A stretch of 64,000 bases of DNA from a virus, in IMG/VR virus record IMGVR_UViG_3300045988_104147, positions 7,757 to 71,756 of that record; one strand, written 5' to 3'. Positions 7,423 to 60,764 of the stretch are shown one piece after another; within the stretch, counting starts at the first letter, position 1; the number at the start of each line of letters is the position of its first letter. Below the pieces are notes generated by a model. The model did no database searches and was not told the origin of the DNA. It was given only the letters and a program-made list of their open reading frames with translations. The translations under genes and the position numbers were made by a program.

Positions 7423-8232
7423 ATGGAAGACGATCTTATTACAACAAAAGAAGTAGGCGATTATCGCATTAAAATATATTATTGCCGTGATTCAGAATGC
7501 CCTATAACTAATTGGGGTTCGTTTGGGTCATTCTTTTTTGAATACTCTGATATGCATCGATTGCATGATGAATGCAATTGGAAAACTTTCTTCTACGATA
7601 ACAAGCATAATCTTAGAGATGTTATTGATGCTATTGTAATGAAGCATATAAAACAGAAAGACATTGTAAAATATTTAAAGAAAGGGGAAGCGAATGGGAT
7701 CTCATTCACATACAACAGAGGTAGCAATGTATGGGAGTTGAAGCATAAGACAAGTCCATATATAGGTCAAGAGTTTTTTCCAAGTGATTTGAAGGACTTT
7801 GATTACAGAGGAGAATTAATAGAGGATCTGGATGACGAAGATTTGTTAGATATCATATCCAAATATGGAAAAGATGTGGTGGCTATAGAGTGGTCAACAA
7901 GGGGTTATAGTCAAGGTGATTATATAAAAGGGATAGCATACGTTACAAAAGAAAAATATGATAACGAAGTATGCGATAAAGAAGGAGACTGGAAAGAAGA
8001 TTGTGCCAAAATTATAGATAATGAAGTAAAGTCCATAGGTATGTGGATGTGGGGAGATGTAAAAGGGTACGTTCTTGAAAAGAAGGTAGCATTTACCAAG
8101 AGATACGAAGACGAATCAAGAGAGGATGAAGATTGCGAAGAATGGGAAGAGGTTGATTCTTGCTGGGGATATTATATGGAAGCAGACGAATTGATAGAAG
8201 AAGTAATGAAAGAATATGACTTAGAAGAATAA
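7423..8232 (+). CDS. hypothetical acidic protein (269 aa)
   Basis: ORF track. Confidence 0.5.
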   Translation: MEDDLITTKEVGDYRIKIYYCRDSECPITNWGSFGSFFFEYSDMHRLHDECNWKTFFYDNKHNLRDVIDAIVMKHIKQKDIVKYLKKGEANGISFTYNRGSNVWELKHKTSPYIGQEFFPSDLKDFDYRGELIEDLDDEDLLDIISKYGKDVVAIEWSTRGYSQGDYIKGIAYVTKEKYDNEVCDKEGDWKEDCAKIIDNEVKSIGMWMWGDVKGYVLEKKVAFTKRYEDESREDEDCEEWEEVDSCWGYYMEADELIEEVMKEYDLEE

Positions 8233-22055: not shown

Positions 22056-22526
22056 ATGAATCGCTGGTTTGAAATTACGGTAAAAGCCGAGATTGATAAT
22101 ATCGAGAACGGCAAAAAAAAGAAAGTAACTGAAAAGTATTTGGTAGATGCCTTGTCTTACACAGAGGCAGAATCAAGATCGTTGGAGATCTTTAAGGATT
22201 TGTACAATTCTTTCGAGGTTGTAAAAATTAATCCTATTAAAGTGTCGGAAATCTTCTTCAACGGAGAAGCTGAGTACTGGTATAAGTGTAAGGTTAATTA
22301 CATTACACTGGATGAAAAGAAAGGCAAAGAAAAGAAAACACCATGCTATATGTATGTCCAGGCCGGAAATCCGAAAGACGCTGAGGCTGTGTTAACTAAG
22401 GGCATGCAAGGTACGTTGGGCGACTGGAATTGCGAGGCTATTGCAGAAACGAAAATCATTGAAGTGTTTAAATACGATCTGCAAAAAGGCGTAGAAAAAT
22501 TGGGAGAAAAGAAAACTGATGAGTGA
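22056..22526 (+). CDS. hypothetical protein
   Basis: ORF track. Confidence 0.45.
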   Translation: MNRWFEITVKAEIDNIENGKKKKVTEKYLVDALSYTEAESRSLEIFKDLYNSFEVVKINPIKVSEIFFNGEAEYWYKCKVNYITLDEKKGKEKKTPCYMYVQAGNPKDAEAVLTKGMQGTLGDWNCEAIAETKIIEVFKYDLQKGVEKLGEKKTDE

Positions 22527-38225: not shown

Positions 38226-38783
38226 ATGGAAAAGATGGATGATAATACTAAAAATATCCTTTATCCAAAAGGATCTATTTTTCGCATATTGAAAGATGAT
38301 ATAATCAGTGCCGAATTTAAAGTCGCCAAAGGAGCTATAGCGGAGGCAGTATCAGACATAGAAGTAAATGATAAATATGCTGAGGTTTGTTGCAATGGGG
38401 AGACGTTCGTTATAGAAACGGATATTATGGGTATTATTCTTACCAAAGACCCCATAGAAAACAAATCGGTGAAAAATGACATCATAGACGACAAACTACG
38501 ATGGGATTTACTTCCTATGGAAGAGATTGAAGACATTGTAAGAGTCTATCATGCTGGCGCAAAGAAGTACGGACCTAACAATTGGCAGAATCTTGATAAC
38601 GGCTTTGAACGGTATCGTGCTGCGGCTGCCAGACACCTAATGGAATACATGAAAGGAGAAAGAATAGATTCAGATACAGGGTGTTTTCATCTTGCACAAT
38701 GTGCGTGGAACTGTATAGCTATGCTATGGTATGATAAGCACGGGAAAGGGTTAATACCATTAAATAAGGAGGAAAAGAAATGA
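38226..38783 (+). CDS. dATP/dGTP pyrophosphohydrolase-like domain protein (RWDLLP ... YHAGAKKYGPNNW signature)
   Basis: hallmark RWDLLP motif of the phage dNTP diphosphohydrolase family, read by eye. Confidence 0.45.
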   Translation: MEKMDDNTKNILYPKGSIFRILKDDIISAEFKVAKGAIAEAVSDIEVNDKYAEVCCNGETFVIETDIMGIILTKDPIENKSVKNDIIDDKLRWDLLPMEEIEDIVRVYHAGAKKYGPNNWQNLDNGFERYRAAAARHLMEYMKGERIDSDTGCFHLAQCAWNCIAMLWYDKHGKGLIPLNKEEKK

Positions 38784-39611: not shown

Positions 39612-40862
39612 ATAATTTGATTATTTTACAAATAACGATTACATTTACGATATAAATCATTCAAATGAGATTAGTTGAAAGGCATATAGTTAAAGACAAC
39701 CGGTTTGAGGATATTTGCTTCAAATCCGGCTTGTTATATAATTATGTTCTTTACAACATTCGTCAAGGAGTCTTTTCTGGTAACTATTTAAAGGAATTTG
39801 ATTTATCAGACAAACTTTGCAAAGAAAACCAATTCGATTTCAGGAATTTACCTAATCATGTATCCCAACAGGTGATTAAACAGGTATTTAAAAACATAAA
39901 ATCCTGGATAAAACTCAAGAAGGATTTTGAAAAGAATCCTTCTAAATACGGAAATCATAGACCTCACCTTCCATCATACAAACAAGGTAAGAAACAAAAC
40001 ATGGTTGTTTTCACCAACTGCAATTGTAGGGTAAAGGGTGATAATTGTATTTATTTTGTTAAAGATATAATCAAACCTATCAAAACAAATGTAAAGAAAG
40101 ACGAACTAAAACAAGTTAGAATAATCCCTCAAGCTACATGTTATGTAGTAGAGGTAGTTTATGAAAGAAAGGAAACTGATCTTGGTTTAAACAAAGACAA
40201 TTTTCTTTCGATTGATTTAGGATTGAATAATTTATGTTCATGTATTAGTAATGTAGAAACTAATTCTTTCATTATAAACGGACGGGTTATGAAATCAGTA
40301 AATCAGTGGTACAATAAGAAGAAAGCTAAGTTGATGTCTTTTGTTGGTAATAAGGGAACTTCAAATAGAATAAGAAAAATTACTTTGTTTAGAAATTGTT
40401 GGATAGAAGACAAATTGCATAAAATCAGTAGATACATTGTAGACTTTTGTAAATCTAACAATATAGGAACAATCATCATTGGATTAAACAAAGAATGGAA
40501 AAACGAGATAAATATCGGTAAAAGGAATAACCAACATTTTGTTTCTATTCCTCATTCTAAATTGATTGATAAGATTGTTTACAAAGCAAATCTTTTAGGG
40601 ATAGAGGTAATTACTCATGAGGAATCTTACACATCAAAGATTGACCATCTTGCTTTTGAACCTCTAAAGAAACAAGAATCCTATTTAGGGAAAAGAAAGA
40701 AACGTGGATTATTCCAAAGTTCCGTTGGAAAGCTAATTAATGCTGATATTAATGGAGCTATAGGAATAGCAAGAAAAGTAGTCGGTGATTCTTTCATTGG
40801 AAAGATAATCGATAGTGGATTTGTGTTTAATCCGGTTAGAATAAATATTTTGTGATATAAGG
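39612..40862 (+). mobile_element. IS200/IS605-family tnpB-only element (IS1341-like), boundaries approximate
   Basis: tnpB ORF with a short AT-rich 5' leader that resembles the leader of the second copy; no tnpA. Confidence 0.35.
39665..40855 (+). CDS. tnpB: TnpB (OrfB_IS605) RuvC-like RNA-guided-nuclease homolog. RuvC D/E/D intact (SIDLG, HEESYTSK, NADINGA); zinc-finger cysteines absent
   Basis: split RuvC motifs in canonical order; 396 aa. Confidence 0.8.
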   Translation: MRLVERHIVKDNRFEDICFKSGLLYNYVLYNIRQGVFSGNYLKEFDLSDKLCKENQFDFRNLPNHVSQQVIKQVFKNIKSWIKLKKDFEKNPSKYGNHRPHLPSYKQGKKQNMVVFTNCNCRVKGDNCIYFVKDIIKPIKTNVKKDELKQVRIIPQATCYVVEVVYERKETDLGLNKDNFLSIDLGLNNLCSCISNVETNSFIINGRVMKSVNQWYNKKKAKLMSFVGNKGTSNRIRKITLFRNCWIEDKLHKISRYIVDFCKSNNIGTIIIGLNKEWKNEINIGKRNNQHFVSIPHSKLIDKIVYKANLLGIEVITHEESYTSKIDHLAFEPLKKQESYLGKRKKRGLFQSSVGKLINADINGAIGIARKVVGDSFIGKIIDSGFVFNPVRINIL

Positions 40863-41797: not shown

Positions 41798-43150
41798 AAA
41801 TAATAGATTCTATTCTGTAATACAAATGTAATTCGTATCTTAGATATATGATTCATAGACAATATTTATAGTATTAAAAATCATGAGATTAGCATACAAG
41901 TTCAACATAGGAAACAATGAAAATATATCATCTCTGTGCAAGATTAGCAATAACTTGTACAATCAGGCATTATATATTTTCAGAGAAACACTTTCTAAAG
42001 AAGATAAGTGGTTATCCTATTTTAAACTTGATTCTATCATGAAGAATACCAAGAACTTAGATGGAAACATTAATTACAGATTACTAAAGGCTCAATGTTC
42101 TCAACAAGTTCTTCGTATTCTTGATAAGAATATAAAAAGCTATTACAAATCGGTCCAAGATTACAAAAAACATCCAAATAAGTATAAAGGGAAACCGGGT
42201 CTTCCAAGTTATAGGAAAAGAGGATCTGAGTTTAACATGTATTACACGAATCAGAATTGTAAGATTAAAGATGGGAAAATTGTTCTTTCAAAGGAACTTT
42301 CGATAGATATTCCTCAATATGAAAAGTATTCTGATTTGATTAAAGATTTTAAACAGATTAGAATAGAACCATTAGCGTGTGGATATAAGATAGAAATCAT
42401 TTATGAGGTAAAAGATACTGAAGTATCTAAAGGTAGGGAAGAAAAAGTTGCTTCTATTGATTTAGGAATAGACAATCTTGTAACATTAGTTAGTGAAGAT
42501 TTTACCTATCTTTTTAGCGGTAATTTTGTTAAATCATATAATCAGAGATTTAATAAAACACTTGCTAAATTAAATAGCATAAAGGATTTACAAAAGATAA
42601 AAGGAACAACAAAACGAATAAAGAAATTATATTATGATAAAGAACAGTACATAGAAGATGTCTTTCATAAAATCAGTAGAAAGATAGTTAATTTACTTAT
42701 CGATTCTAAGATAACAAAATTAGTTGTAGGCTATAACAAGGGATGGAAAACTGGAGTAAACATGGGAAAAAGAAACAACCAAAAGTTTACCCAAATCCCT
42801 TTTGCGAGATTAGTAAGTTATTTAGAATATAAATGTGAATTATCTGGTATTGAAATAGTTATTCACGAAGAATCATATACTTCAAAATGTGATTCATTGG
42901 CATTTGAGAAGATAGGAAAACATGATAGCTATTTAGGAAGAAGGAAGAAACGAGGATTGTTTCAATCTTCAGTAGGAAAACTCATAAATGCAGACGTAAA
43001 TGGAGCATTAAACATTATGAGAAAAGTAGTCGGTGATTCCTGTGAATCAATTTGTAGGATAATCGATAGAGGGTTATTGTTTAACCCGGTAAGGATTACG
43101 AATGTATTTTGTTAAGAAGGTGCATTCCGAGACTTATAAAGAAATGTAAT
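41798..43150 (+). mobile_element. second IS200/IS605-family tnpB-only element, boundaries approximate
   Basis: tnpB ORF with a related leader; no tnpA. Confidence 0.35.
41883..43115 (+). CDS. tnpB: TnpB (OrfB_IS605) paralog. RuvC D/E/D intact (SIDLG, HEESYTSK, NADVNGA); zinc finger reduced to one Cys
   Basis: C-terminal roughly 70% identical to the first copy, N-terminal half diverged. Confidence 0.8.
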   Translation: MRLAYKFNIGNNENISSLCKISNNLYNQALYIFRETLSKEDKWLSYFKLDSIMKNTKNLDGNINYRLLKAQCSQQVLRILDKNIKSYYKSVQDYKKHPNKYKGKPGLPSYRKRGSEFNMYYTNQNCKIKDGKIVLSKELSIDIPQYEKYSDLIKDFKQIRIEPLACGYKIEIIYEVKDTEVSKGREEKVASIDLGIDNLVTLVSEDFTYLFSGNFVKSYNQRFNKTLAKLNSIKDLQKIKGTTKRIKKLYYDKEQYIEDVFHKISRKIVNLLIDSKITKLVVGYNKGWKTGVNMGKRNNQKFTQIPFARLVSYLEYKCELSGIEIVIHEESYTSKCDSLAFEKIGKHDSYLGRRKKRGLFQSSVGKLINADVNGALNIMRKVVGDSCESICRIIDRGLLFNPVRITNVFC

Positions 43151-43718: not shown

Positions 43719-43883
43719 ATGAAAACAAAAGAAGAAAAACAAAAGAAATTTTTGACAGAATTTGAAATCAACGGGCGAAAATACGCTGGTGAAATATGGG
43801 CTACTTCTTGGGATGAGGCAGAAGATTTTGTTAAACAAAGAGCTGCAACAGAAGAAGTAGTGGGAGTTATTCCAAATGATTAA
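43719..43883 (+). CDS. hypothetical small protein (54 aa), last + strand gene before the strand switch
   Basis: ORF I translated by hand (MKTKEEKQKKFLTEFEINGRKYAGEIW...); below track cutoff. Confidence 0.3.
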   Translation: MKTKEEKQKKFLTEFEINGRKYAGEIWATSWDEAEDFVKQRAATEEVVGVIPND

Positions 43884-43898
43884 GGCAGTTATATATAA

Positions 43899-43937
43899 TT
43901 CTGCATATAGATGATAGTATAGAGTCTATATGCAGAA
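43899..43937. terminator. bidirectional terminator: perfect 12-bp inverted repeat ttctgcatatag / ctatatgcagaa with 15-nt loop, followed by TTGTTTT on +
   Basis: lies exactly between the convergent + and - gene blocks. Confidence 0.5.
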
Positions 43938-43942
43938 TTGTT

Positions 43943-44677
43943 TTAATTGTCGAACGTAACTGTCTCCGATGTTACCACATATTCACCTATACTTCCATAC
44001 GCTTTAGAATATAATTCAAGTTCTATATAAGCGGAATAGGTGGCATAGAAAGTGCCCTGACCCAACCTGGTTATAATAGGTCTGACTATTGATGTTAGGG
44101 TCAAATTTTGAAAGGATGCAGGAGAAGGCTCTGGTTCGATATTGGTTTTAACAAGTCCACAACCCCATGATGTATCTGAGCCGGTTTCGTAGATCTTATC
44201 TACAGGATCTCCTATTATCGTATCTGGGTACTCATGTTGCTCACTGGTGTAATTCATTACAATAGGATTATCATTGTTTACATTGTATTTTTTACCAGGA
44301 GCAGTATATGATATTTCACGATATGTTACATATTTCTTTTCTTGTTCTCTCACTGTAAACTGGTCAGGCAAATAAAGACGTATCAAAAAACCTAAAGAAG
44401 GAGATTCTGTTCTACCTATAATAAGTTTAATGTCATCCTTCTCTACAAGCTCTTTCGTAGATTCTGTTTGTTCGCTGATAGTCTCTTTTGTATTAGATGG
44501 GACTCCTCCTTGGATACTTATAGAACCCAGACGTTGTTTTGTGGAAAGAAAGGTAAATACACCACTTTGTGGAACAGTACCGACTATTTCATCATCTATG
44601 ATTACCCCCCCCCCTATACAGTTGCTAACTATTTGATATTCATATACTTTTAACGATGTTTCAAATCTTCTTCTCAT
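43943..44677 (-). CDS. beta-rich hypothetical protein (candidate surface or receptor-binding protein) with a G10 homopolymer at codons 22-25
   Basis: ORF track; poly-G encodes GGG in ...CIGGGVII... Confidence 0.5.
   Translation of the reverse strand: MRRRFETSLKVYEYQIVSNCIGGGVIIDDEIVGTVPQSGVFTFLSTKQRLGSISIQGGVPSNTKETISEQTESTKELVEKDDIKLIIGRTESPSLGFLIRLYLPDQFTVREQEKKYVTYREISYTAPGKKYNVNNDNPIVMNYTSEQHEYPDTIIGDPVDKIYETGSDTSWGCGLVKTNIEPEPSPASFQNLTLTSIVRPIITRLGQGTFYATYSAYIELELYSKAYGSIGEYVVTSETVTFDN
44605..44614 (-). repeat. homopolymeric tract C10 on +, i.e. G10 on the coding strand
   Basis: ten consecutive C at 44605..44614 in a genome of roughly 36% GC. Confidence 0.9.
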
Positions 44678-45135
44678 ATTCCTTTTAAGTAAGTATCAGG
44701 TGCAACAAAATTACTTATTGTCTTTATTATATGTATAGTATCTATAAAATATTTATCAACATCCATAGAAAGCTGAGGACGAAGATCTGAATCGTTTGTC
44801 TTATCTGTTATATAGAAATAGTACAGAACATCCTCCAGATAAAATGTAAGATAAATATCCCCTGTGACATTTCCATTATTGAAATAGCAATTGATGCCGG
44901 AACCGGATGGAGTCATATGGCAATCTATACTCTGGGTATCTCCCATAGTACACACGTAATTGGAACTGGCAATATCAACCGCATATTTTCCAACATTTAT
45001 ACCACCACTTTCTCTCGATCTCGTGGTAAGTATATGAACGGCATTTTTCCAAGTGGAAAGAGGTGCAGATATACTAACGGCGAAAACGGGAATTATCGTC
45101 TGAAATAAATCATATGACAAAAACCTTCTTCTCAT
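44674..45135 (-). CDS. hypothetical secreted protein (MRRRFLSYDLFQTIIPVFAVSISA signal-peptide-like N-terminus), ATGA-coupled to the downstream gene
   Basis: ORF track 44674..45225 trimmed to the Met that precedes the hydrophobic segment. Confidence 0.45.
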   Translation of the reverse strand: MRRRFLSYDLFQTIIPVFAVSISAPLSTWKNAVHILTTRSRESGGINVGKYAVDIASSNYVCTMGDTQSIDCHMTPSGSGINCYFNNGNVTGDIYLTFYLEDVLYYFYITDKTNDSDLRPQLSMDVDKYFIDTIHIIKTISNFVAPDTYLKGI

Positions 45136-45352
45136 TATTTTATTTTTTTGCAAGATAGCATTTTTTTTCATAACAAAAGAAACCAGTTCTCTATCATCGC
45201 TGACTGAGAACTGGTAAGAAAACAATTTCAGAAAAAATTAAACCTACATAACCTTTAAAGTAAGAACAAAAAAACGTATAGTCTACTCTTTGACAATGCT
45301 AAGATAGCATATTAGAGCCATATTGTAGTAATATAAGCCCAATATTCTTCGT

Positions 45353-48300
45353 CTACTTGTAGCTCACATCATCGTCTCCTTCTGAATCAGGAGTGGCACC
45401 GATGAAGAACATCATTGACTTGTTGTTCGTCTGCTGCCACCAATTATAGGCGCGTGCTACGTCTTCTGGTGTCTTGATATTATACCATTGTTTGATAAAC
45501 GTCTGTTTGGCGAGCTGCCTAAATAACTTAGACTCTCCTTTGTATGTACCGGATGTTACTTTATCAAGTGAGTAGTTCCTAAGATCGGTAAGATCCTTCA
45601 ACTTCCGTCCCATAACAAACGGGTCGTTAATGATATCAACCACATTAAGCTCCATAATAAATGGCATCTGTGAAGCTATTTCGTTTATGGTTCTGAATCC
45701 GACATAGGATCCAAATTGAGTAAGCCAACTTTCTTCGTTTTCATCATCATCACGCCATCCGGCAAGAAGCATAGATACGGCCTGCATGATAAGGAACGTG
45801 CCGGCATAGACACTGAGGCGTTTGAGATTAGTTTTTTCTACCTCATTCATATTGTCTTTATTTTCGTTCCAGGCATCTATGATGTTTTTCATACCAGACT
45901 CGGAAGCCAGGCTAAATGTTTTGGCTATCATATTCTTTAACGTAATTGACAACCCTTCCTCTTCTTGCATTGTCTGGAAATTGAAGCCACGTCTTTTCCA
46001 CAGACGTTGAGCTGCCAGCACCAGCCAGCCTCGGTGGGCGGTCATGAACCTGGCTATCCAGTTGCGCGATGCGGCAGTTCGGTTTTCTTCATTCAAAGAT
46101 CCGTTACATATCTGCGACAAGCTACGGACTTGATTCCTGGTTATAGCCATCTGGGTTTCAACTTCCTCAACAGTAACACCCGATCCCGGCTTTACAACCA
46201 CCTTTCCATCCACGACGTCTACCATACTCCATAAAGTACGATCTTTTAATGCGTTCCATTCTCTTTTTATGGTACTCTGTTCTTTATTGCGTTCTTTTTC
46301 CATCTTGAAATCTTGGAACGTGTAGAACCGACCTTTGTAATAACGAACATTGTCCATAGTAGCAATCATAACCTGCGGATCAAGAGGGTAGTTCAGGATT
46401 TCCATAAAAGCATACATAGGTGAACGCATTAAGGTCCTGGCCACTCTATTGTATCCGGCACCATACATACGATTTCGGATATTGAATATCCCCATTCTCT
46501 CACCTATGACATATAATTTGCTTTTCCTATCTATGTCTCCGGTTTCTGCTATACAAGATGGAGCAAGGCGTGAAAATTCAGCCGATGCGTATTTAAGGGA
46601 ATCTTTACTTATATACTGTCCTACGGCAGATTCCATGATGAGGTTGATATGACCTGTTAAGGCGCCGGTAGCTGCCACAAACGGGGACAGTGCCAAGTTC
46701 ATGACCGACATAAATCTTTCAACAGCCATCATAATTCTTGTAAGGTCTACCGTATATCCTCCGATGTTCACCGTAAGTTTTTTGGTGTTCATCCTAATGC
46801 CATAATAATGATCGTTGAAGAAGTCCCTGAACATCTGATATGCTTGGGTTGCTTCAGCCTTTTTACCACCTTCAAATTGTTTATTCAGTAACATCTGCTC
46901 CAGTCCTTGAGCGAGCTCTATAGACTTCTGCTTTTCGTTGTATAACGATGACTGCATCATAAGCATCGAATAAGAGTAGCCAAAATCGTGAGATACATCA
47001 TCTTGGTTCTCCAATTCATATATGTAGTATTTAGGTATAGACCTAAGTCTGTCTTCCGGATCATACACTTCTCCTTGCCTGGTTTTACCGTATAAAGAAT
47101 CGTCTACTCTGTCCAGGCACAGATCTGATACAAAATTACGAACCGTATTTTTGAAGTTAATACCCAATCCTTCTATACGTTCTATATCTTGTTTTGATAT
47201 CTGTGGAATAGCATACAGGTTCGGGCTCTGCTCTTTGTATAGATCAAGGGATTGTCTTTTTATTTCCTTGAGTTTTTGAATCATATTCCACTGCTCTACG
47301 TTTTTAGTAGCAACTTCATTACCGTCAGCATCATACTTGATACCAAAGTCATTGAAATAAGATTCATCACGATACAGGCTTTTCTTAGGCATTCGATGAC
47401 CATACCCATGATCTTTTACATAATCAGGATTACGGCCGTTATTTTCGGCTTCAGATTCAGCCACCCATGCCCTTGCAGGATCGAAAGACAGGTACGATAT
47501 GTTCATGCCATAATCTTGGGTGGATGTACCGTTTTGCACGTCCTTAACCATCTGCGCCACATCTATCTCACCTCGACCTATTTTGTCGATCATAGCCGCA
47601 TATCCGGTAGGCGCCATGCGTTTATAGTAGGAAAAGACCTGGCCCCTGGCAAATTCATTAACAATAGCATTAGCTTCTTCTACACCCTCTTCTCTTGTAT
47701 TATTTAAAAACAAGCTGGCCATCTTAGCATTAACAGCATTCCTGAAATCTCTACCGTCTAATTCTTTGCTTATACCAAGCTTTTCTGACAGGTAGTTGGT
47801 TTCAGATACGGTAAACAGATATCGGTTATCAGCAGCCTTAAACAGCTTATCCCTTAAAGCCTGAATCCTTTTTGCTTTCTTCGCCGTAGTATGACGTTGT
47901 ACGAACTTCCATTCCACTTCCTTGGAGTCAGCAAGAGCATTTAAATAAGACTGATTTACTTCGTTTTCGGCCTTACTGCTTTTAGTAAGGTACTTATCAA
48001 TATCTTCAAGACCCACCATCTTAGCATAATCTATTAAGATAGCGTAATCAGCTTCAATAGCTTCAGATGCGGCCCTAAAAGCATCTCTTTCAGATGAGGT
48101 AAATGTCGCTTCGTTAATTTCTCCGATATCAGCCACATCTCGGTTGTTTCCGATTATTTCCTTGATAATGGCCTTATTTTTTTCTATATCTTTCACAATC
48201 GAATCCACGTCAGTCGCATCTCTATCACTTGTCGTAGAACTAATGATATCATGCGCCATTTTAAGATACGAAGCCTTGTTATTTGATTCGGTGCGCGCCG

Positions 48301-51300
48301 ACTGTTCCGATTCTACGTCATTCCAAAATCGATCGTTGAATGACAGGTGACCTCCCAACATAAGCGTCTTCAACGCAGCTTCTCCTCCTGACTCGCTCTG
48401 GATCGTTCTTAATTTTTGCAAAAACGATTCTGATACAGTATTAGTGACATTATTTGATTCTTTTCTCCAAACTTCATTTATGGCTTGTATTTCTTTAGCC
48501 ATCTTAAGCTGGTCTCCGGTTTTTTCAACACGTCTGGTACCAACATATATGTATTCCGAAGCTGCTTCCTTACGTTGTTTACGAAGCAGTCCTTCTTCTT
48601 CGTAGTTACTACTCTTATAGTAGGCAACCTCATCAAAATTACCACCGCTATCAATAAAAGGCTGCCTCAATATCCGTTTTTGCCGGGAAAGAGCATTAAG
48701 ATACTCTTTAGTTGTTTGAGAAACCGGATATCCTAATTCTTCTTCAGCCTTTTTGTATATGGATTCCATTCTTGTGGCATAACTTTCGCTAAATTCCAGT
48801 TCCGAATTTTCAGCATCCCACTTTTCCATCTGTTCTGTATAGATCTTTTCCTGCTCGATGGTAAAAATATCGGTATTAACCCTATCAGACGATGGTTTGA
48901 ATTTAGCGTTTTCAGTAACCGTATTTCCATCCTTGTCAACTACTTCTCTTTTAAATACGTAATTACGGTTATTGTCAACCACATCATTTATTTCTTCTTC
49001 TGATATCTCTATGTTCATGGCAGTCGCAAACGCTCGCATCTGCGCCAGCTTCTTATTACGATCGTATTTAGCCATATCAAGAGCACTACGAAGGTAATTA
49101 GAAGTTTTGCCGTCTACTTTCTGAAGCAGTTTTTCAAATTCAGATTTGTTAAAACCATGCTTTTTAGCATATGCCAGGAAGTCGGATATGGCGGGCTGGG
49201 CATTCACCATCGCATTGTAATTGTCTTTGGCAATCATAGCTCCAAGAGCGTTATTGAACGGACTGGAAGAATGCTCTAATATACCGAACCACCTACTTAT
49301 CCAAGAAACATCGTGTTGAACCTTGTCAAAAAATTCTTTTACTCTCTTTACCTTATCTGCCGGCACATGAAGTTCGTTCATTAACTTGTCAAGCAACGTA
49401 CTTTCATCAAGATCTTGTACTGATTTAATATCAGACTGAATACCGTTGATGTCGGCAATGACGGTATTGATCCTATTTGTATAATCCTGCTTTTCACGCT
49501 CATCAAATTCGGTACTTCTGTTACGGATATATCCTCGAAGATCGTTCATGATCGGAAGAACCTGATTGTTGATAATATCTACGTTCTTTCGATCATTGGT
49601 ATTGAAGTGAAGCTTACCGTCTTTGGTATCACCATGAAGGATGGTGTTCACCACATTGCTTAAGTATCTGACCTGAGCTTCGGCTGTAGAGATCATGCTG
49701 TTCATGGCAGCCGCCATCTCATTCTTGTCTATTTCGGTCTCTACTTTATTTATCTTATCTTCTATGGTCTTAAGCTGCGCAAGGGTCATAGACGTAGTTA
49801 CAGCCCTATCAGAGCTTATCTGACGTAAGTCTCTTAATGTTTTCCTTAATGCCAGGATCTTAGACTCAAGAAACTTGTTCTTGTTCATAGAAGAAAGGGA
49901 GTATAATGTAAAGTCATTATCCTTTAACAGAGAAGTGTCAAATCCTTTATCTATGTCAGTAATGGCAAGATCACGAATGTTTTTAATAACGTTATTCAAA
50001 TCTTGTCTTTGAGTAGATAAAGCTGATTTAAGCCAGTTTACAATTCCAGAGAGAAGCTGCCGGACGCGCCCCAGGAAGGAGGTGGGCTCTACCGGCGCCT
50101 GTGCTGTGCCGGTCTGTATCTCCCTGGCGAGGATCTTTCCAAGAATTTCTCTCCTAACAGCATTATCAAGCTCAGCCCCTTCATATACCTTACCGTATGT
50201 ATTATAATACTGACCTGCATACTGGTTCCACTCTTCCGTACCTTCTACATCTTGCAGAACAGCCTCAACAGCATTCTGATCTCTGTATGCCTCTACAAGG
50301 AAGTGGGCTGTTTCTTCTACTAAATCAGATAAAGTAGCATCTTCACCAACTGCTATTACGTTATTAGCAATATCCGCCAATGCCTTAGCAGAAGGTTCGT
50401 GCCCGTATTTGGTTTGATACTTCTCTATATAATCGGTCATACCTATGACACTAACGCCCAACGTTTTCAGTATCTCGACAATAGAATTTCGTTGATCACG
50501 TTCCTGCCTGCTATAATCTGATACGATCTTAGCTTTAGTATCAGCATAAAGATCGTTGTCCTCTAATATGAATGAAACTACAAGCGCATCAAAATGATCG
50601 TACTTGGCGTCCAATTCATTGTATCTTCCTGACTTAAGATCGTTCTTTATCTGCTCTTTGCTAACCCTTTCCGTTCCTCCGGTGGCGAGCCTCATAGTCA
50701 CCTTACTGTTATCCAACGAGCTTATGGTTATCATACCTTGGTCGTTCATGGAAACATCGGAACCAAAATGATTACGGAGCTCGGTGTAGGATAAGGCTGA
50801 ATTGAAAAGTCTAATTTGTCCTGTATGACCTTCTCCTGTAAGATAATAGCTTCTTGTTTCAGGATCGAATATCTTAGATCCGGACAAAAGACCTTTCTTT
50901 ATAAGGTAGTTAATTATACCACCTTTTGTTGATAAAGAAGTAGAAGCAGAAGCGGTCATGACCGGTATAAAAGATTTGGGATTATTAAGAACATACCTTC
51001 CAGCTTTGTAAGTAATGTCTGCCACGCCATCCCAGGCAGATTCTTGAACGGTGCCTGATAAGAATCCTATTCTAATATCATTCCCGCCAGAGCGAAGAGC
51101 TTCTCCGTAATCTTCAAATAATTGACTACGATCGTTCATGAAAAACAAACGAGGCTCTCCGGTCTGATACGTTACACCCACAGGATTAGAATCTGTCTGT
51201 GGTAACTCTTCTGGGCTAAATATCTTAAGACCGTCTTTTATAACCATATAATTAACACCCTTATCCTGTACCATAGATACGGGAGTGAAGTCTGAAGATA

Positions 51301-51775
51301 TGGTATCTTGTAGATACTGCCCGGCGTCTATTCCAGGTCCTTCCGGTACGGAAATACTTGACGGGACCATAGCATCCACCAACATAATATTATCACCCAG
51401 ATTTTGGCTGTAGAATCCAAAGCCCGATTCTTGGATTTCATAAGGTGCATCTGATTTTGACACAAGAACAGGGTTACTCATCTTAGAAGCCTTATCCAGC
51501 ACCCTTTCCCTATAGGCTTCCGGAATAAGATCGATGTTGGATTTCACCTTATTGTAGGCCTGTTTATTAACAGGTACATTCCTTCTCCAGTCGCCAAAAG
51601 CCTTTAAGAACTTATTAGAAAATACGGTTTTAAAAACAGTAGTAGCCCGTTCCCTGTTCTCCATAAGAGGAATAGATGCTATTTTATCAAACAACATAGA
51701 CCTGTCCCCTGATCTGGTAGAGACAGAAACAACTTTCTTTTTATTATCTCTTTTAATAATACACGTTGATGTCAT
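45353..51775 (-). CDS. giant protein (2140 aa), largely alpha-helical; putative virion-associated / injected protein, function unknown
   Basis: uninterrupted 6.4-kb ORF; no catalytic motif recognised by eye. Confidence 0.7.
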   Translation of the reverse strand: MTSTCIIKRDNKKKVVSVSTRSGDRSMLFDKIASIPLMENRERATTVFKTVFSNKFLKAFGDWRRNVPVNKQAYNKVKSNIDLIPEAYRERVLDKASKMSNPVLVSKSDAPYEIQESGFGFYSQNLGDNIMLVDAMVPSSISVPEGPGIDAGQYLQDTISSDFTPVSMVQDKGVNYMVIKDGLKIFSPEELPQTDSNPVGVTYQTGEPRLFFMNDRSQLFEDYGEALRSGGNDIRIGFLSGTVQESAWDGVADITYKAGRYVLNNPKSFIPVMTASASTSLSTKGGIINYLIKKGLLSGSKIFDPETRSYYLTGEGHTGQIRLFNSALSYTELRNHFGSDVSMNDQGMITISSLDNSKVTMRLATGGTERVSKEQIKNDLKSGRYNELDAKYDHFDALVVSFILEDNDLYADTKAKIVSDYSRQERDQRNSIVEILKTLGVSVIGMTDYIEKYQTKYGHEPSAKALADIANNVIAVGEDATLSDLVEETAHFLVEAYRDQNAVEAVLQDVEGTEEWNQYAGQYYNTYGKVYEGAELDNAVRREILGKILAREIQTGTAQAPVEPTSFLGRVRQLLSGIVNWLKSALSTQRQDLNNVIKNIRDLAITDIDKGFDTSLLKDNDFTLYSLSSMNKNKFLESKILALRKTLRDLRQISSDRAVTTSMTLAQLKTIEDKINKVETEIDKNEMAAAMNSMISTAEAQVRYLSNVVNTILHGDTKDGKLHFNTNDRKNVDIINNQVLPIMNDLRGYIRNRSTEFDEREKQDYTNRINTVIADINGIQSDIKSVQDLDESTLLDKLMNELHVPADKVKRVKEFFDKVQHDVSWISRWFGILEHSSSPFNNALGAMIAKDNYNAMVNAQPAISDFLAYAKKHGFNKSEFEKLLQKVDGKTSNYLRSALDMAKYDRNKKLAQMRAFATAMNIEISEEEINDVVDNNRNYVFKREVVDKDGNTVTENAKFKPSSDRVNTDIFTIEQEKIYTEQMEKWDAENSELEFSESYATRMESIYKKAEEELGYPVSQTTKEYLNALSRQKRILRQPFIDSGGNFDEVAYYKSSNYEEEGLLRKQRKEAASEYIYVGTRRVEKTGDQLKMAKEIQAINEVWRKESNNVTNTVSESFLQKLRTIQSESGGEAALKTLMLGGHLSFNDRFWNDVESEQSARTESNNKASYLKMAHDIISSTTSDRDATDVDSIVKDIEKNKAIIKEIIGNNRDVADIGEINEATFTSSERDAFRAASEAIEADYAILIDYAKMVGLEDIDKYLTKSSKAENEVNQSYLNALADSKEVEWKFVQRHTTAKKAKRIQALRDKLFKAADNRYLFTVSETNYLSEKLGISKELDGRDFRNAVNAKMASLFLNNTREEGVEEANAIVNEFARGQVFSYYKRMAPTGYAAMIDKIGRGEIDVAQMVKDVQNGTSTQDYGMNISYLSFDPARAWVAESEAENNGRNPDYVKDHGYGHRMPKKSLYRDESYFNDFGIKYDADGNEVATKNVEQWNMIQKLKEIKRQSLDLYKEQSPNLYAIPQISKQDIERIEGLGINFKNTVRNFVSDLCLDRVDDSLYGKTRQGEVYDPEDRLRSIPKYYIYELENQDDVSHDFGYSYSMLMMQSSLYNEKQKSIELAQGLEQMLLNKQFEGGKKAEATQAYQMFRDFFNDHYYGIRMNTKKLTVNIGGYTVDLTRIMMAVERFMSVMNLALSPFVAATGALTGHINLIMESAVGQYISKDSLKYASAEFSRLAPSCIAETGDIDRKSKLYVIGERMGIFNIRNRMYGAGYNRVARTLMRSPMYAFMEILNYPLDPQVMIATMDNVRYYKGRFYTFQDFKMEKERNKEQSTIKREWNALKDRTLWSMVDVVDGKVVVKPGSGVTVEEVETQMAITRNQVRSLSQICNGSLNEENRTAASRNWIARFMTAHRGWLVLAAQRLWKRRGFNFQTMQEEEGLSITLKNMIAKTFSLASESGMKNIIDAWNENKDNMNEVEKTNLKRLSVYAGTFLIMQAVSMLLAGWRDDDENEESWLTQFGSYVGFRTINEIASQMPFIMELNVVDIINDPFVMGRKLKDLTDLRNYSLDKVTSGTYKGESKLFRQLAKQTFIKQWYNIKTPEDVARAYNWWQQTNNKSMMFFIGATPDSEGDDDVSYK

Positions 51776-53266: not shown

Positions 53267-53557
53267 CTATAAATTTAATATTCCGTTTTTGCCAATATGC
53301 TTCTTTTCTTCTTCAGTAGGCCATTCTTTCTTGAACTTACCATGCCACGTTCCAGGAACTACCACCACTTCGCCTCCCTTACTATATTCAATAGCGGCAC
53401 ATTCAGAACAAAGAGGCTTGCCTTCATATCCCTTTAGCGACTTATCGTAAATACGATTCTTACAAGGTCTCATAAGAGCCCAGTAATATGATGTGGCTGT
53501 ATTATCTATACAGCCACATTTTGAACACACAAACAAACTCATTTCGTAATCTCCCAA
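53267..53557 (-). CDS. zinc-ribbon protein (CSKCGC...CSEC)
   Basis: ORF track plus CxxC pairs. Confidence 0.4.
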   Translation of the reverse strand: MGDYEMSLFVCSKCGCIDNTATSYYWALMRPCKNRIYDKSLKGYEGKPLCSECAAIEYSKGGEVVVVPGTWHGKFKKEWPTEEEKKHIGKNGILNL

Positions 53558-54435
53558 TCATTTGACGATATATCTTCTATACTTGGGTTCCACGATGTCA
53601 GCCTCCGTGTTTCTTCATTTATAATTATGATCAATGACTTTTCCACATGAATTGAGCTAACACCACTTCTTCTAAAAGCATCAAGATGTTCATTTTTCCA
53701 TCCACGTCTTTTGATCATATTACCATCTTTCAGAAATTTAAAAGCTTCTTCAAATGTTAAACCTGACTTCTTTTGATTAAGATACTGTTCAAGTCTGTCG
53801 GCGGCTTCATTTGGTGTATGGCCATCATATTCGAAAGAGGTTTCTCTCTCTGGAACATCAAACAAATCCCAGTACTTGCTTTCATAGTGATTAGACACCT
53901 GACCAGTGGGTAACATTGCCATCACAATAAACCAATCATCAGAACCGAAGCATTTTTCTCCGTCGCTGTGCCTTCTTGATTTGCAAACTTCAACCTGTCC
54001 GTTTCTGGCTAATAGATTAAAGAAGGCGGCGTTGTACAACATACGGTACCGATACAATTCATTGAAAGTATGGTATCCGTCAGAAACTTCTCCCATGTCT
54101 ACAGGCTTCTTGTTTTGAATACTACCCAAAATATTCTCTACATAGAGCTGTATTTTATACAGACCCATTTCGGTGTGGCCGTATTTGTTCAAGATCTTAT
54201 TGACATCGTATTGTATATTAAAATCTTTTTCAAATTCTACTTCAGGATGATTCGGATAGCAGTAGTCCACTGATGCTTCTAACACTGACTTTACGTGTTC
54301 TATTATCCTCGCAACATCATCATGTTTAAAAAAATGCTTAAATCTTTCAACGAATTTAATATCTTCGTTGATTGCTGATTCGAACTCTTCTTTTGTCATC
54401 ACTCTAACTACATCTTTAAAATCTTTTAATTCCAT
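53539..54435 (-). CDS. hypothetical protein (298 aa)
   Basis: ORF track. Confidence 0.5.
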   Translation of the reverse strand: MELKDFKDVVRVMTKEEFESAINEDIKFVERFKHFFKHDDVARIIEHVKSVLEASVDYCYPNHPEVEFEKDFNIQYDVNKILNKYGHTEMGLYKIQLYVENILGSIQNKKPVDMGEVSDGYHTFNELYRYRMLYNAAFFNLLARNGQVEVCKSRRHSDGEKCFGSDDWFIVMAMLPTGQVSNHYESKYWDLFDVPERETSFEYDGHTPNEAADRLEQYLNQKKSGLTFEEAFKFLKDGNMIKRRGWKNEHLDAFRRSGVSSIHVEKSLIIIINEETRRLTSWNPSIEDISSNDWEITK

Positions 54436-56405: not shown

Positions 56406-56663
56406 TCAATAAGAACGACCTCTGCCACGTCCGCGACCTCTACGCATCTGAGGTCCGTCACCGTAGTATCTGTCGTCTCCATAGTAATCGGTCGGGTAGG
56501 ATTCGTAACCCATCCTCCGGTATTCCCGGTCCTCCATTTCATGACGACGTTCGCGCTCTTCGAGCCTTCTTTCCCTTTCTTCCAGCTCGTTTTCGCGTTC
56601 TTCCATTTCTTTCATCTTCTCATGCATACCGTAATGGTCGTAAATACCACCACCGTACCCCAT
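56406..56663 (-). CDS. low-complexity G/Y/R/E-rich protein (ERE repeats, C-terminal RGRGRGRGRSY)
   Basis: ORF track; overlaps the 3' end of the Bro-N ORF by 52 nt in another frame. Confidence 0.3.
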   Translation of the reverse strand: MGYGGGIYDHYGMHEKMKEMEERENELEERERRLEERERRHEMEDREYRRMGYESYPTDYYGDDRYYGDGPQMRRGRGRGRGRSY

Positions 56664-57178
56664 GTACGTCCCATCAGAACGCCGGCTTCTGCCTCTGCCT
56701 GCGACTTTTCGGCTATAGCTTTTTGAGCAGCTTCATATTGATCAGCCCAGGCTCTTGCTGCATCTGCCGGATTAGAAAAGTCAGGGACCAAAATTCCCTT
56801 TCCACCGGAACTTGTTTTATATTCTCCTGTTTTACGAATAGAAGGAAGAACCTCAGATGTTACCCATTTCTTAAATCTCTTAGCAGACTCTAATTTTGAA
56901 GATAATATAAGAGAATATAAACCAGATTCATTAATTATTCTTATACTATCTATATATCTGGTTTTCAATATAGATCGTTTTACGCCCCATTGATTATCAG
57001 ATACTTGCAAAAGCATAGAATCATCATCATCTACATGTCTTTTTACCGCATCTTTAGCATTTATATATCCAAGAGATTTAGCCACATCTGACGCCACAAA
57101 CCAAACATCTCCTTTTGGATCTACAATAATTCTAAGCTCTCCAAAATCCGAACTTTCAAAAACAGAAACTTTATCCAT
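56612..57178 (-). CDS. Bro-N domain protein (phage antirepressor-like DNA-binding domain: WFVASDVAKSLGY...)
   Basis: Bro-N signature read by eye; start trimmed to MDKVSVF. Confidence 0.55.
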   Translation of the reverse strand: MDKVSVFESSDFGELRIIVDPKGDVWFVASDVAKSLGYINAKDAVKRHVDDDDSMLLQVSDNQWGVKRSILKTRYIDSIRIINESGLYSLILSSKLESAKRFKKWVTSEVLPSIRKTGEYKTSSGGKGILVPDFSNPADAARAWADQYEAAQKAIAEKSQAEAEAGVLMGRTWGTVVVFTTITVCMRR

Positions 57179-57355
57179 GATAAAAAAATAGGCCCAAAAG
57201 AGAATGTCAGATCCCACTATGACAAACCCTAATGAGCCAAAAATATCTTTCAACATCAAACAACCAGAGGTGGGATCTCGTTGTTCATTGTTTCTGGAGC
57301 AAAGATAGGAACAGGATTTTAAATAGCAAATATTTTAATACTTTTTAAATCAAAC

Positions 57356-60176: not shown

Positions 60177-60764
60177 TTATGAAACTTCTATTTCATAATG
60201 CGAAGCCTCTGTCTCAACTATCAATCTTCCCTCTCCTTCGAACTCAACGCTATCATTTCCTGGACCAGTAACAAAAGGGAAATCAGATACGGATGTTACA
60301 TAATCTCCAGAACCACCGGAGAAAGACTGACTTTTACTTTGTTTGTAATTGATAGTCAATTGTGTTTTACCTATCTGAAGAGTTCCAGATAAATTTTTAG
60401 TATAAGTAGTGGTAGTTGTAATATCCCCATTTTTATAACAATACATTATAAAGGTGGTAACCGGACTCTTTTTTATATTACTATCCGGACCTGCATGATA
60501 AGATTCATTTCCTCCAAATATGCTATAAATGTGACAATAAGGACCGACTCTTTTACTTGAGGTTTTAGCCTTATCCTCGACTCCTTTCAAAGATATAGTA
60601 ACCTTACTCTTGTATTCAATATCCTTCCAATTACAGACTCCTTCACTTACGTTTCCAACAAACCTGTCATCAACATAAACCTCTATATTCCCCTGCTGAT
60701 TGGTCTTCAACTGATACTGAACAAGATTTGAAACATCTTCGTATCTCCTTCTCATACTCAACAC
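60177..60764 (-). CDS. beta-rich protein (195 aa, Thr/Gly-rich; candidate fibre or receptor-binding module)
   Basis: ORF track; overlaps upstream gene by 7 nt. Confidence 0.5.
   Translation of the reverse strand: MLSMRRRYEDVSNLVQYQLKTNQQGNIEVYVDDRFVGNVSEGVCNWKDIEYKSKVTISLKGVEDKAKTSSKRVGPYCHIYSIFGGNESYHAGPDSNIKKSPVTTFIMYCYKNGDITTTTTYTKNLSGTLQIGKTQLTINYKQSKSQSFSGGSGDYVTSVSDFPFVTGPGNDSVEFEGEGRLIVETEASHYEIEVS

Follow-up and report, generated by a model that had tools for sequence, protein, structure and literature searches.

A length-variable G tract in gene Z of an epsilon crAss-like phage: comparative evidence for a probable slippage-type ON/OFF switch

We analysed a stretch of 64,000 nucleotides (nt) of viral DNA (IMG/VR record IMGVR_UViG_3300045988_104147, positions 7,757 to 71,756), referred to as the window in the following. 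Its G+C content is 37.1%. The element in question is a run of ten G near the start of a small gene on the minus strand, which we named Z. A reading of the letters alone (the sequence-only reading) had proposed this run as a candidate phase-variation switch. We compared the tract with its counterparts in related phage genomes. The features at the core of the analysis are:

44605..44614, minus strand: G10 homopolymer seen in the sequence, a candidate hypermutable tract
43943..44677, minus strand: gene Z, 244 amino acids (aa), an open reading frame (ORF) with an ATG start, 118 homologues and an AlphaFold model; the frame downstream of the tract is open in out-of-frame relatives
44486..44677, minus strand: N-terminal module of Z (N-module), residues 1-64, motif YxYxIVSNCxGGxV
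43943..44485, minus strand: variable C-terminal beta-sandwich part of Z, residues 65-244, of three C-terminal types, assessed by omega and free of nonsense variants

On the plus strand, positions 44605..44614 read CTATGATTA-CCCCCCCCCC-TATACAG, i.e. C10 and hence G10 on the coding strand. There the surroundings of the tract read AAC TGT ATA GGG GGG GGG GTA ATC, and the run encodes Gly22, Gly23 and Gly24 together with the first base of Val25, in agreement with the sequence-only reading. That reading had also called a G/C run of this length improbable here because the other homopolymers are A/T runs, and the counts bear this out. The G10 tract is the sole G/C homopolymer of at least 6 nt in the window, and the remaining runs of at least 6 nt all consist of A or T with a maximum of 9 nt. 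The expected number of G/C runs of at least 10 nt is 0.0007-0.008 for independent bases and 0.003-0.015 under a first-order Markov model. Furthermore, GGG is the rarest Gly codon in the long ORFs of the window (105 of 807, 13%). Based on this codon usage three consecutive Gly codons would all be GGG with a probability of 0.002, and the sole other Gly-Gly-Gly in these ORFs is written GGTGGTGGA (GGT GGT GGA).

The frame depends directly on the tract length. For G9 the sequence becomes ATA GGG GGG GGG TAA, with TAA directly after the tract and a product of 24 aa. The predicted products are 28 aa for G11 and 44 aa for G8, so that slippage by one nucleotide in either direction truncates the protein early, as had been anticipated. 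Reading on from the tract, we encountered more than 100 codons without an in-frame ATG, GTG or TTG; out-of-frame alleles should therefore be null. Homopolymer contingency is usually recognised by an uninterrupted run of at least about 7 nt in the promoter or in the 5' part of an ORF, and Z has its G10 at codons 22-25 of 244.

The 118 homologues of Z were obtained by a protein search, and the DNA of 83 related IMG/VR loci was fetched. Related contigs came from human gut metagenomes and were 80-158 kb long. The only GenBank phage with DNA similarity was csAssE-Sib (OR575929, 151 kb, human gut), which is the crAssE-Sib genome, an epsilon crAss-like phage of the proposed genus Epsilonunovirus (PMC11054128). 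This phage is without Z. In all full-length Z homologues, including those that are only 35-42% identical and those with unrelated C-terminal parts, we observed NCIGG[G/E/R/W]V at the same place. The main allele set comprised 79 cleanly comparable sequences (78 IMG/VR relatives and the window). The alleles were distributed as follows:

G9: 32/79, out of frame
G10: 26/79, in frame
G8: 9/79, out of frame
G11: 1/79, out of frame
G6: 1/79, out of frame
interrupted 10-nt alleles (G5AG4, G6AG3, G7AGG, G5TG4): 6/79, in frame
11-nt alleles G8AGG or G8AAG: 4/79, out of frame

In one subclade TGTTATG stands in place of TAATC after the tract. Because of this different sequence the in-frame length there is G9 and the out-of-frame length G8. 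The frame totals for the set were 34 ON and 45 OFF (57% OFF). An independent pattern scan of metagenomes added 25 contigs, which include a few identical assemblies. Of these, 4 had G8, 11 had G9 and 6 had G10, with one case each of G11, G12, G7AGG and G9AGG. Finally, a single Logan contig carries G15, which sits in a fusion of Z with the neighbouring gene Y (Y::Z). Among approximately 100 related contigs the tract thus ranges from G8 to G12, once G15, in single-base steps at the same codons. It is maintained behind three different C-terminal domains and in the subclade with the different downstream sequence. The sequence-only reading had suggested looking for the same tract in related genomes, and nearly all relatives have it.

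Although the majority of the copies is out of frame, the reading frame behind the tract is preserved. In 44 of the 45 OFF copies 219-221 codons stay open after the tract, the exception being one contig (L017) with 65 codons. For Z residues 65-244 in the largest clade we counted 0 nonsense changes among 419 nucleotide variants, compared to 19.5 expected under neutrality (P = 3e-9), as 4.4% of the possible changes would be nonsense. The window's own clade likewise showed 0 nonsense variants in Z where 3.1 were expected. Based on the missing nonsense variants and the open codons in the OFF copies, selection maintains the Z ORF. Secondary damage was found in two metagenome contigs only, L209 (1.4x coverage) and L225 (internal deletion). 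The two parts of Z differ in omega, the ratio of nonsynonymous to synonymous substitution rates. With an omega of approximately 0.27 in both clades (codon-aware estimate), the N-module is by this measure under purifying selection. The C-terminal part showed an omega of 0.77 in the window's clade (clade A) and of 1.42 in the large clade (clade B), the latter being significantly greater than 1 (p = 0.007).

Fitch parsimony on the gene tree gave minima of 34 allele changes and 23 ON/OFF changes. There were 5 repeated gene haplotypes, identical over 725 nt, and 3 of them differ at the tract (G10/G9, G10/G8 and G10/G6AG3). As sequences that are otherwise identical differ there, and in both frame directions, the tract changes much faster than any other site. 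Judging from these comparisons the ON/OFF change is recurrent (homoplasy) and not one inherited mutation, with reversion itself being presumed. The flanks of pairs with identical Z diverge by 3-10% over 3 kb (L002/L010, L027/L054 and others) and thus the cassette around Z recombines between co-circulating phages.

Considering all of this, we regard a slippage-driven switch of an accessory gene Z as the best explanation as a whole, with a probability of about 0.7. For the G tract as an ON/OFF switch of Z, taken by itself, the comparison of alleles makes a strong case, and we hold it to be very probable. The G10 would be a hypermutable simple-sequence repeat in which single G:C pairs are gained or lost by slipped-strand mispairing during phage DNA replication. 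A length of G10, or of 10 plus or minus 3, would give the full 244-aa protein, other lengths would be null and the switching would be reversible. If the tract slips in this manner, each burst would mix genomes that make Z with genomes that do not. Two contigs (L076 and L217) terminate exactly at the tract, which hints at length heterogeneity within a population. Particles with and without Z may then provide bet-hedging in the face of host surfaces that vary, or of a host or immune factor recognising Z. An effect of the switching on host range would be pure conjecture.

Several observations weigh against this explanation. All evidence on tract length comes from consensus sequences of different samples, and over half of these are OFF. 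Frameshifts, one nonsense mutation and deletions also occur in the adjacent cassette genes X and Y, described below, and omega of the C-terminal part of Z is near 1. The OFF majority, the damage to X and Y and this omega fit a dispensable gene under weak selection. In addition, Z is exchanged by recombination and the parsimony counts from a single gene tree are therefore approximate, while the argument from identical haplotypes is unaffected.

A rival reading is that of a decaying accessory gene which the phage can do without and in which the tract merely mutates fast, with no selected switching and with OFF as a tolerated loss on the way to gene loss. Such decay would agree with the OFF majority among the consensus sequences, with the near-neutral C-terminal part and with the state of the neighbours: in X and Y we saw a nonsense codon, deletions and, at shorter runs (G5, T8, T5), frameshifts, and approximately 39% of the X copies are disrupted. 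It would also agree with the absence of Z from csAssE-Sib and with cassette deletions that end at the tract. However, a decaying gene should have accumulated nonsense changes, of which we found none, and its N-module should not be under purifying selection. ON and OFF states alternate across the tree and occur on identical haplotypes, a pattern that calls for reversion or very recent changes. Moreover, every clade retains the run of the rarest Gly codon, and the interrupted, stable alleles that do arise have not taken its place. We therefore consider decay unlikely. It is less probable still that the tract is a recoding site, at which transcriptional slippage or ribosomal frameshifting makes Z from out-of-frame alleles and the quantity made depends on the DNA length. 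In principle nascent RNA or tRNA-Gly can realign on a run of 9-10 identical bases, as is established for long A/T runs and slippery heptamers, and the commonest allele is G9 and not the in-frame G10. However, the 95 nt downstream of the tract contain no stable RNA structure (minimum free energy -11.7 kcal/mol, z-score +1.04 compared to shuffled sequences), and G9 alleles have a stop codon at once after the tract. We found no fixed out-of-frame arrangement among the relatives; alleles that would need a correction of -1, +1 or +2 occur together with in-frame and interrupted ones, unlike at a fixed programmed site.

A further rival is sequencing or assembly error at a difficult homopolymer of fixed length. 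Long G/C homopolymers are error-prone on several platforms, the coverage of some contigs is very low (1.4x for L209, 1.1x for L218) and, as mentioned, two contigs break off at the tract. Against this stands a control: a coding A8 run at window position 22113 kept its sequence in 118 of 119 related contigs, of which many were also tract contigs, and the exception was a substitution without change in length. The tract variation is thus not a general assembly error. Metagenome-scan contigs with a coverage of 36x-323x from different assemblers carry G10, G11 or G9AGG, the 323x contig having G11. Variation of runs of 7-9 nt was confined to intergenic DNA and gene X; length change therefore appears where selection permits it and not everywhere. 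Error at a fixed tract is accordingly very improbable. The same holds for a tract that is incidental, i.e. a Gly-Gly-Gly turn needed by the protein and a run shared through recent descent of the N-module. The N-module DNA is indeed very similar between clades, which suggests recent exchange, and NCxGG is conserved even in distant homologues. Nevertheless only two of the Gly are conserved, as relatives can have E, R or W in place of the third and distant homologues have S there. Since the third Gly can be replaced, the protein does not need GGG GGG GGG G, and three GGG codons in a row would be rare by chance alone. Common descent also gives no account of the length variation or of the frame-shifted majority. 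In 1.82 Mb of related loci, G/C runs of at least 8 nt occurred in two places only, namely at the Z tract and in the equivalent N-terminal codons of gene X.

We next turn to the protein that would be switched. The AlphaFold model of Z has a predicted local distance difference test (pLDDT) score of 88.9 and is mostly beta, with a disordered leader (residues 1-7, MRRRFET). Three unrelated C-terminal types share one N-module. Phage fibres and adhesins are typically built in this manner, with a conserved N-terminal module and a distal part that varies and evolves fast. By sequence we obtained no usable family match for Z or Y in Pfam, PHROGs, NCBIfam or PDB. For Z the best PHROG hit did not rise above noise (E-value 0.076), no Pfam match to PEGA / CarboxypepD_reg-like or BACON domains exceeded the gathering threshold, and no receptor-binding-protein family appeared in the family searches. 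Fold searches with the Z model returned generic immunoglobulin-like (Ig-like) sandwiches only. An exhaustive profile search of 1.84 billion proteins was more informative: Z positions 8-150 match repeated internal modules of proteins of 650-1268 aa with E-values down to 3e-13. BACON domains were present in 7 of the 10 large homologues that were scanned, one of which also has a 'viral BACON' domain. Aligning Z with these large BACON-type proteins with hhalign gave a probability of 93% and placed SNCEGGSV opposite SNCIGGGV. One such homologue lies on a phage contig next to genes matching a tail protein and a major head protein. The 759-aa gene of the window was considered as a relative of a BACON-domain homologue of similar length and was rejected as unrelated. 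Z has no transmembrane or signal-like segment, and a search of one genome per bacterial and archaeal species for a hint of the host or a prophage returned no Z relative.

Within the window, tblastn detected one further copy of the N-module:

60177..60755, minus strand: N-module paralogue, 39% identity over 38 aa, E-value 1.7e-4

Its homologue in csAssE-Sib (WOZ57302) directly follows a 2208-aa structural protein. A role of Z on the virion surface, in adhesion or host interaction, is what the domain architecture, the selection pattern, the distant homology to phage BACON-domain proteins and the lack of a transmembrane or signal segment make most likely among the roles considered, and we propose it tentatively. 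In this role Z would be a dispensable accessory component on or in the virion, whose conserved N-terminal module may dock while the C-terminal Ig-like sandwich diversifies rapidly. The sequence-only reading had suggested a tail-fibre or receptor-binding protein and had pointed to structure prediction for fibre or lectin folds. The models did give beta sandwiches for both Z and Y, and architecture, selection and BACON-type homology offer circumstantial support. A specific fibre identity did not emerge, as no family fits and the fold matches of Z are generic.

The immediate surroundings of Z contain the following features:

44674..45135, minus strand: gene Y, a 153-aa beta-sandwich protein (MRRRF...) upstream of Z; its stop overlaps the Z start (ATGA)
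45143..45168, minus strand: conserved motif TGCTATCTTGC between an A8 and an A7 run, 7 nt upstream of the Y start and conserved upstream of X or Y in relatives
45182..45215, minus strand: inverted repeat with 15-nt arms followed by a T-rich stretch, terminator-like, between the 2140-aa gene and the Y-Z unit
43897..43939, no strand assigned: perfect 15-nt inverted repeat immediately after the Z stop, where transcription converges
45353..51775, minus strand: gene of a 2140-aa virion structural protein (phrog_37651, E-value 1.6e-77; annotated as 'structural protein' in csAssE-Sib), immediately upstream of Y-Z

The ATGA coupling described in the sequence-only reading is present, with the Y stop TGA at 44674..44676 and the Z start at 44677; the likely Y start is the ATG at 45135. 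Both products begin with MRRRF and are predicted to be mostly beta, as had been stated, and the Y model is a beta sandwich with a pLDDT of 83 and a predicted template modelling score of 0.80. We could not support the signal peptide that had been assigned to Y. The hydrophobic residues 15-23 form a confident beta strand of the fold in the AlphaFold model, the Kyte-Doolittle maximum of 1.48 is below the usual transmembrane threshold, and the csAssE-Sib homologue and most of the aligned family have a Lys within the equivalent stretch. In some Y homologues (P0121, P0123 and P0127) we observed compensated frameshifts at T4-T5 and A5 runs, where a short out-of-frame stretch is followed by restoration of the frame. 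Damage to Y in relatives amounted to one nonsense codon and one frameshift.

After the 2140-aa gene, different genomes carry different pairs of the small genes X, Y and Z, all of which begin with MRRRF. X (205 aa, MRRRFQIGMGV...) was found in relatives and not in the window. An identity of X as Lcl_C (DUF1566) was not relied on, as the E-value of about 0.7-0.8 is below any threshold of significance. At the equivalent N-terminal codons X has a G run of its own (ATA GGG ATG GGG GTA; L018:2396-2410), which was G5 in 61, G6 in 8, G8 in 3 and G4 in 1 of the copies, and one contig has G9. A coding T8 in X (L018:2784-2791) was T7 or T9 in about 20% of the copies. Some deletions join the start of X or the middle of Y to Z, and their endpoint lies at the tract (L057:3001-3045, L079:2970-3010, L204:100-205), and thus the tract is also a recombination or deletion point. 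The A8 and A7 runs around TGCTATCTTGC each vary independently between 7 and 9 nt in relatives. We take this region for the presumed promoter or 5' leader of the Y-Z bicistron, and the A runs could modulate transcription or the leader. The repeat at 43897..43939 is probably a bidirectional terminator. A scan with sigma-70 promoter and terminator models found promoter-like sites at the shuffled expectation and called no terminator, the model being probably wrong for a Bacteroidales phage.

It is possible, though on balance doubtful, that the tract is one element of a recombining multi-gene contingency cassette (X, Y, Z) specific to epsilon crAss-like phages. This idea is based on the shared MRRRF leader, the equivalent G tracts in two genes, the T8 in X and the slippery runs around the putative promoter. 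If true, the cassette would give combinatorial, reversible variation of accessory virion-surface proteins. It would then be a viral counterpart of Bacteroidales capsule phase variation and would contribute to the long-term coexistence of crAss-like phages and their hosts.

On a larger scale the locus is the meeting point of plus-strand genes, the last of which ends at 43883, and minus-strand genes, consistent with the hinge between two genome arms in the sequence-only reading. Two TnpB / IS605 OrfB-like genes lie near this convergence point (39665-40855 and 41883-43115, plus strand, 396 and 410 aa); genes of this type occur in only some members of the epsilon crAss genus (PMC11054128). A 298-aa protein at 53539-54435 combines a WDGH domain (E-value 4.7e-36) with a Tad2-like Thoeris anti-defence domain (E-value 3.6e-11), which makes it a likely anti-defence gene. 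An anti-repressor (Ant) homologue (56612-57259, E-value 9e-41) and a dATP/dGTP pyrophosphohydrolase homologue (38226-38783) both agree with the csAssE-Sib annotation.

To our knowledge, Campylobacter phages are the only ones for which ON/OFF switching of a gene by slippage has been demonstrated. Beyond that case the phage-side variation known to us so far is amino-acid diversification by diversity-generating retroelements (DGRs), with phase variation described only on the host side. On the evidence of comparative genomics, the locus would be a second example of a slippage-type phage switch, this time in phages unrelated to those of Campylobacter. The principle of polyG switching was already known, and what is new is a case in the dominant phage group of the human gut. 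It bears on the question of how phages persist for years beside hosts whose surfaces change continually. There is also a practical aspect: gene callers split or drop Z in more than half of the assemblies, and frameshifts at the Z tract should not be 'corrected' as errors.

Finally, we compared the locus with known systems of rapid variation. BACON repeats are known in a crAssphage protein (PMC6949934); the likeness here is that Z positions 8-150 (SNCxGGxV) are homologous to the tandem repeats of the large BACON-carrying phage proteins. In the phages Mu (G segment) and P1 (C segment) reversible, heritable switches likewise act on a host-recognition protein, and PMC12823448 cites their invertible tail-fibre segments as a determinant of host range. 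Those switches use site-specific recombination between alternative gene sets and an invertase, whereas at Z there is a homopolymer only, with neither an invertase nor a flanking inverted-repeat segment. Within the same phage group as Z, a DGR acts on a C-type-lectin receptor-binding protein of epsilon crAss-like phages (crAssE-Sib, PMC11054128). Both cases concern targeted, rapid variation of a presumed host-interaction protein. They differ in the target gene and in the mode of change, as reverse-transcriptase adenine mutagenesis of a variable repeat alters amino acids and slippage would toggle the whole protein. Short-word blastn of the Y-Z region against the 64-kb window detected nothing beyond chance matches (14-15 nt) and thus no second copy of Z that could act as a DGR template. 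The same paper (PMC11054128) makes no mention of homopolymers and describes the DGR on the different gene only, and our literature search found nothing that links crAss-like phages to polyG or homopolymer switching.

Bacterial contingency loci (Campylobacter capsule and lipooligosaccharide, Neisseria, Haemophilus, Bordetella) resemble Z in having a 5' G/C homopolymer, one-base shifts that lead to immediate stops and an otherwise intact ORF. The tract described here is viral, however, and the switching unit would be the phage lineage and burst and not a bacterial clone. In the presumed Bacteroidales hosts, surface variation relies mainly on invertible promoters and not on polyG tracts, so that the tract would not be a simple mimicry of a host mechanism.

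The closest parallel is found in Campylobacter phages of the genus Fletchervirus, in which Sorensen et al. reportedly described polyG tracts in receptor-binding protein genes in 2021 (Cell Rep 35:109214). PMC11959909 and PMC12823448 describe this work, and the former, a 2025 review, terms the case exceptional. As in Z, the tract is an intragenic polyG of approximately 7-11 nt whose length varies one base at a time, which moves the gene in and out of frame. For Fletchervirus this switching is reported to result in phenotypically mixed phage populations. The carriers are different: a Campylobacter myovirus on one side and an epsilon crAss-like gut phage on the other, with a different likely host phylum and a different protein. 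Furthermore, the switched gene in Fletchervirus is a receptor-binding protein, whereas Z is at most a candidate for such a role. We detected no homology of Z to Fletchervirus genes, either in PHROGs or by blastn of the Y-Z region against the phage collection; the latter matched csAssE-Sib only, where the aligned DNA was the end of the 2140-aa gene and did not include Z. As far as these searches can tell, the resemblance to Fletchervirus is not one of homology and is an analogy of mechanism.

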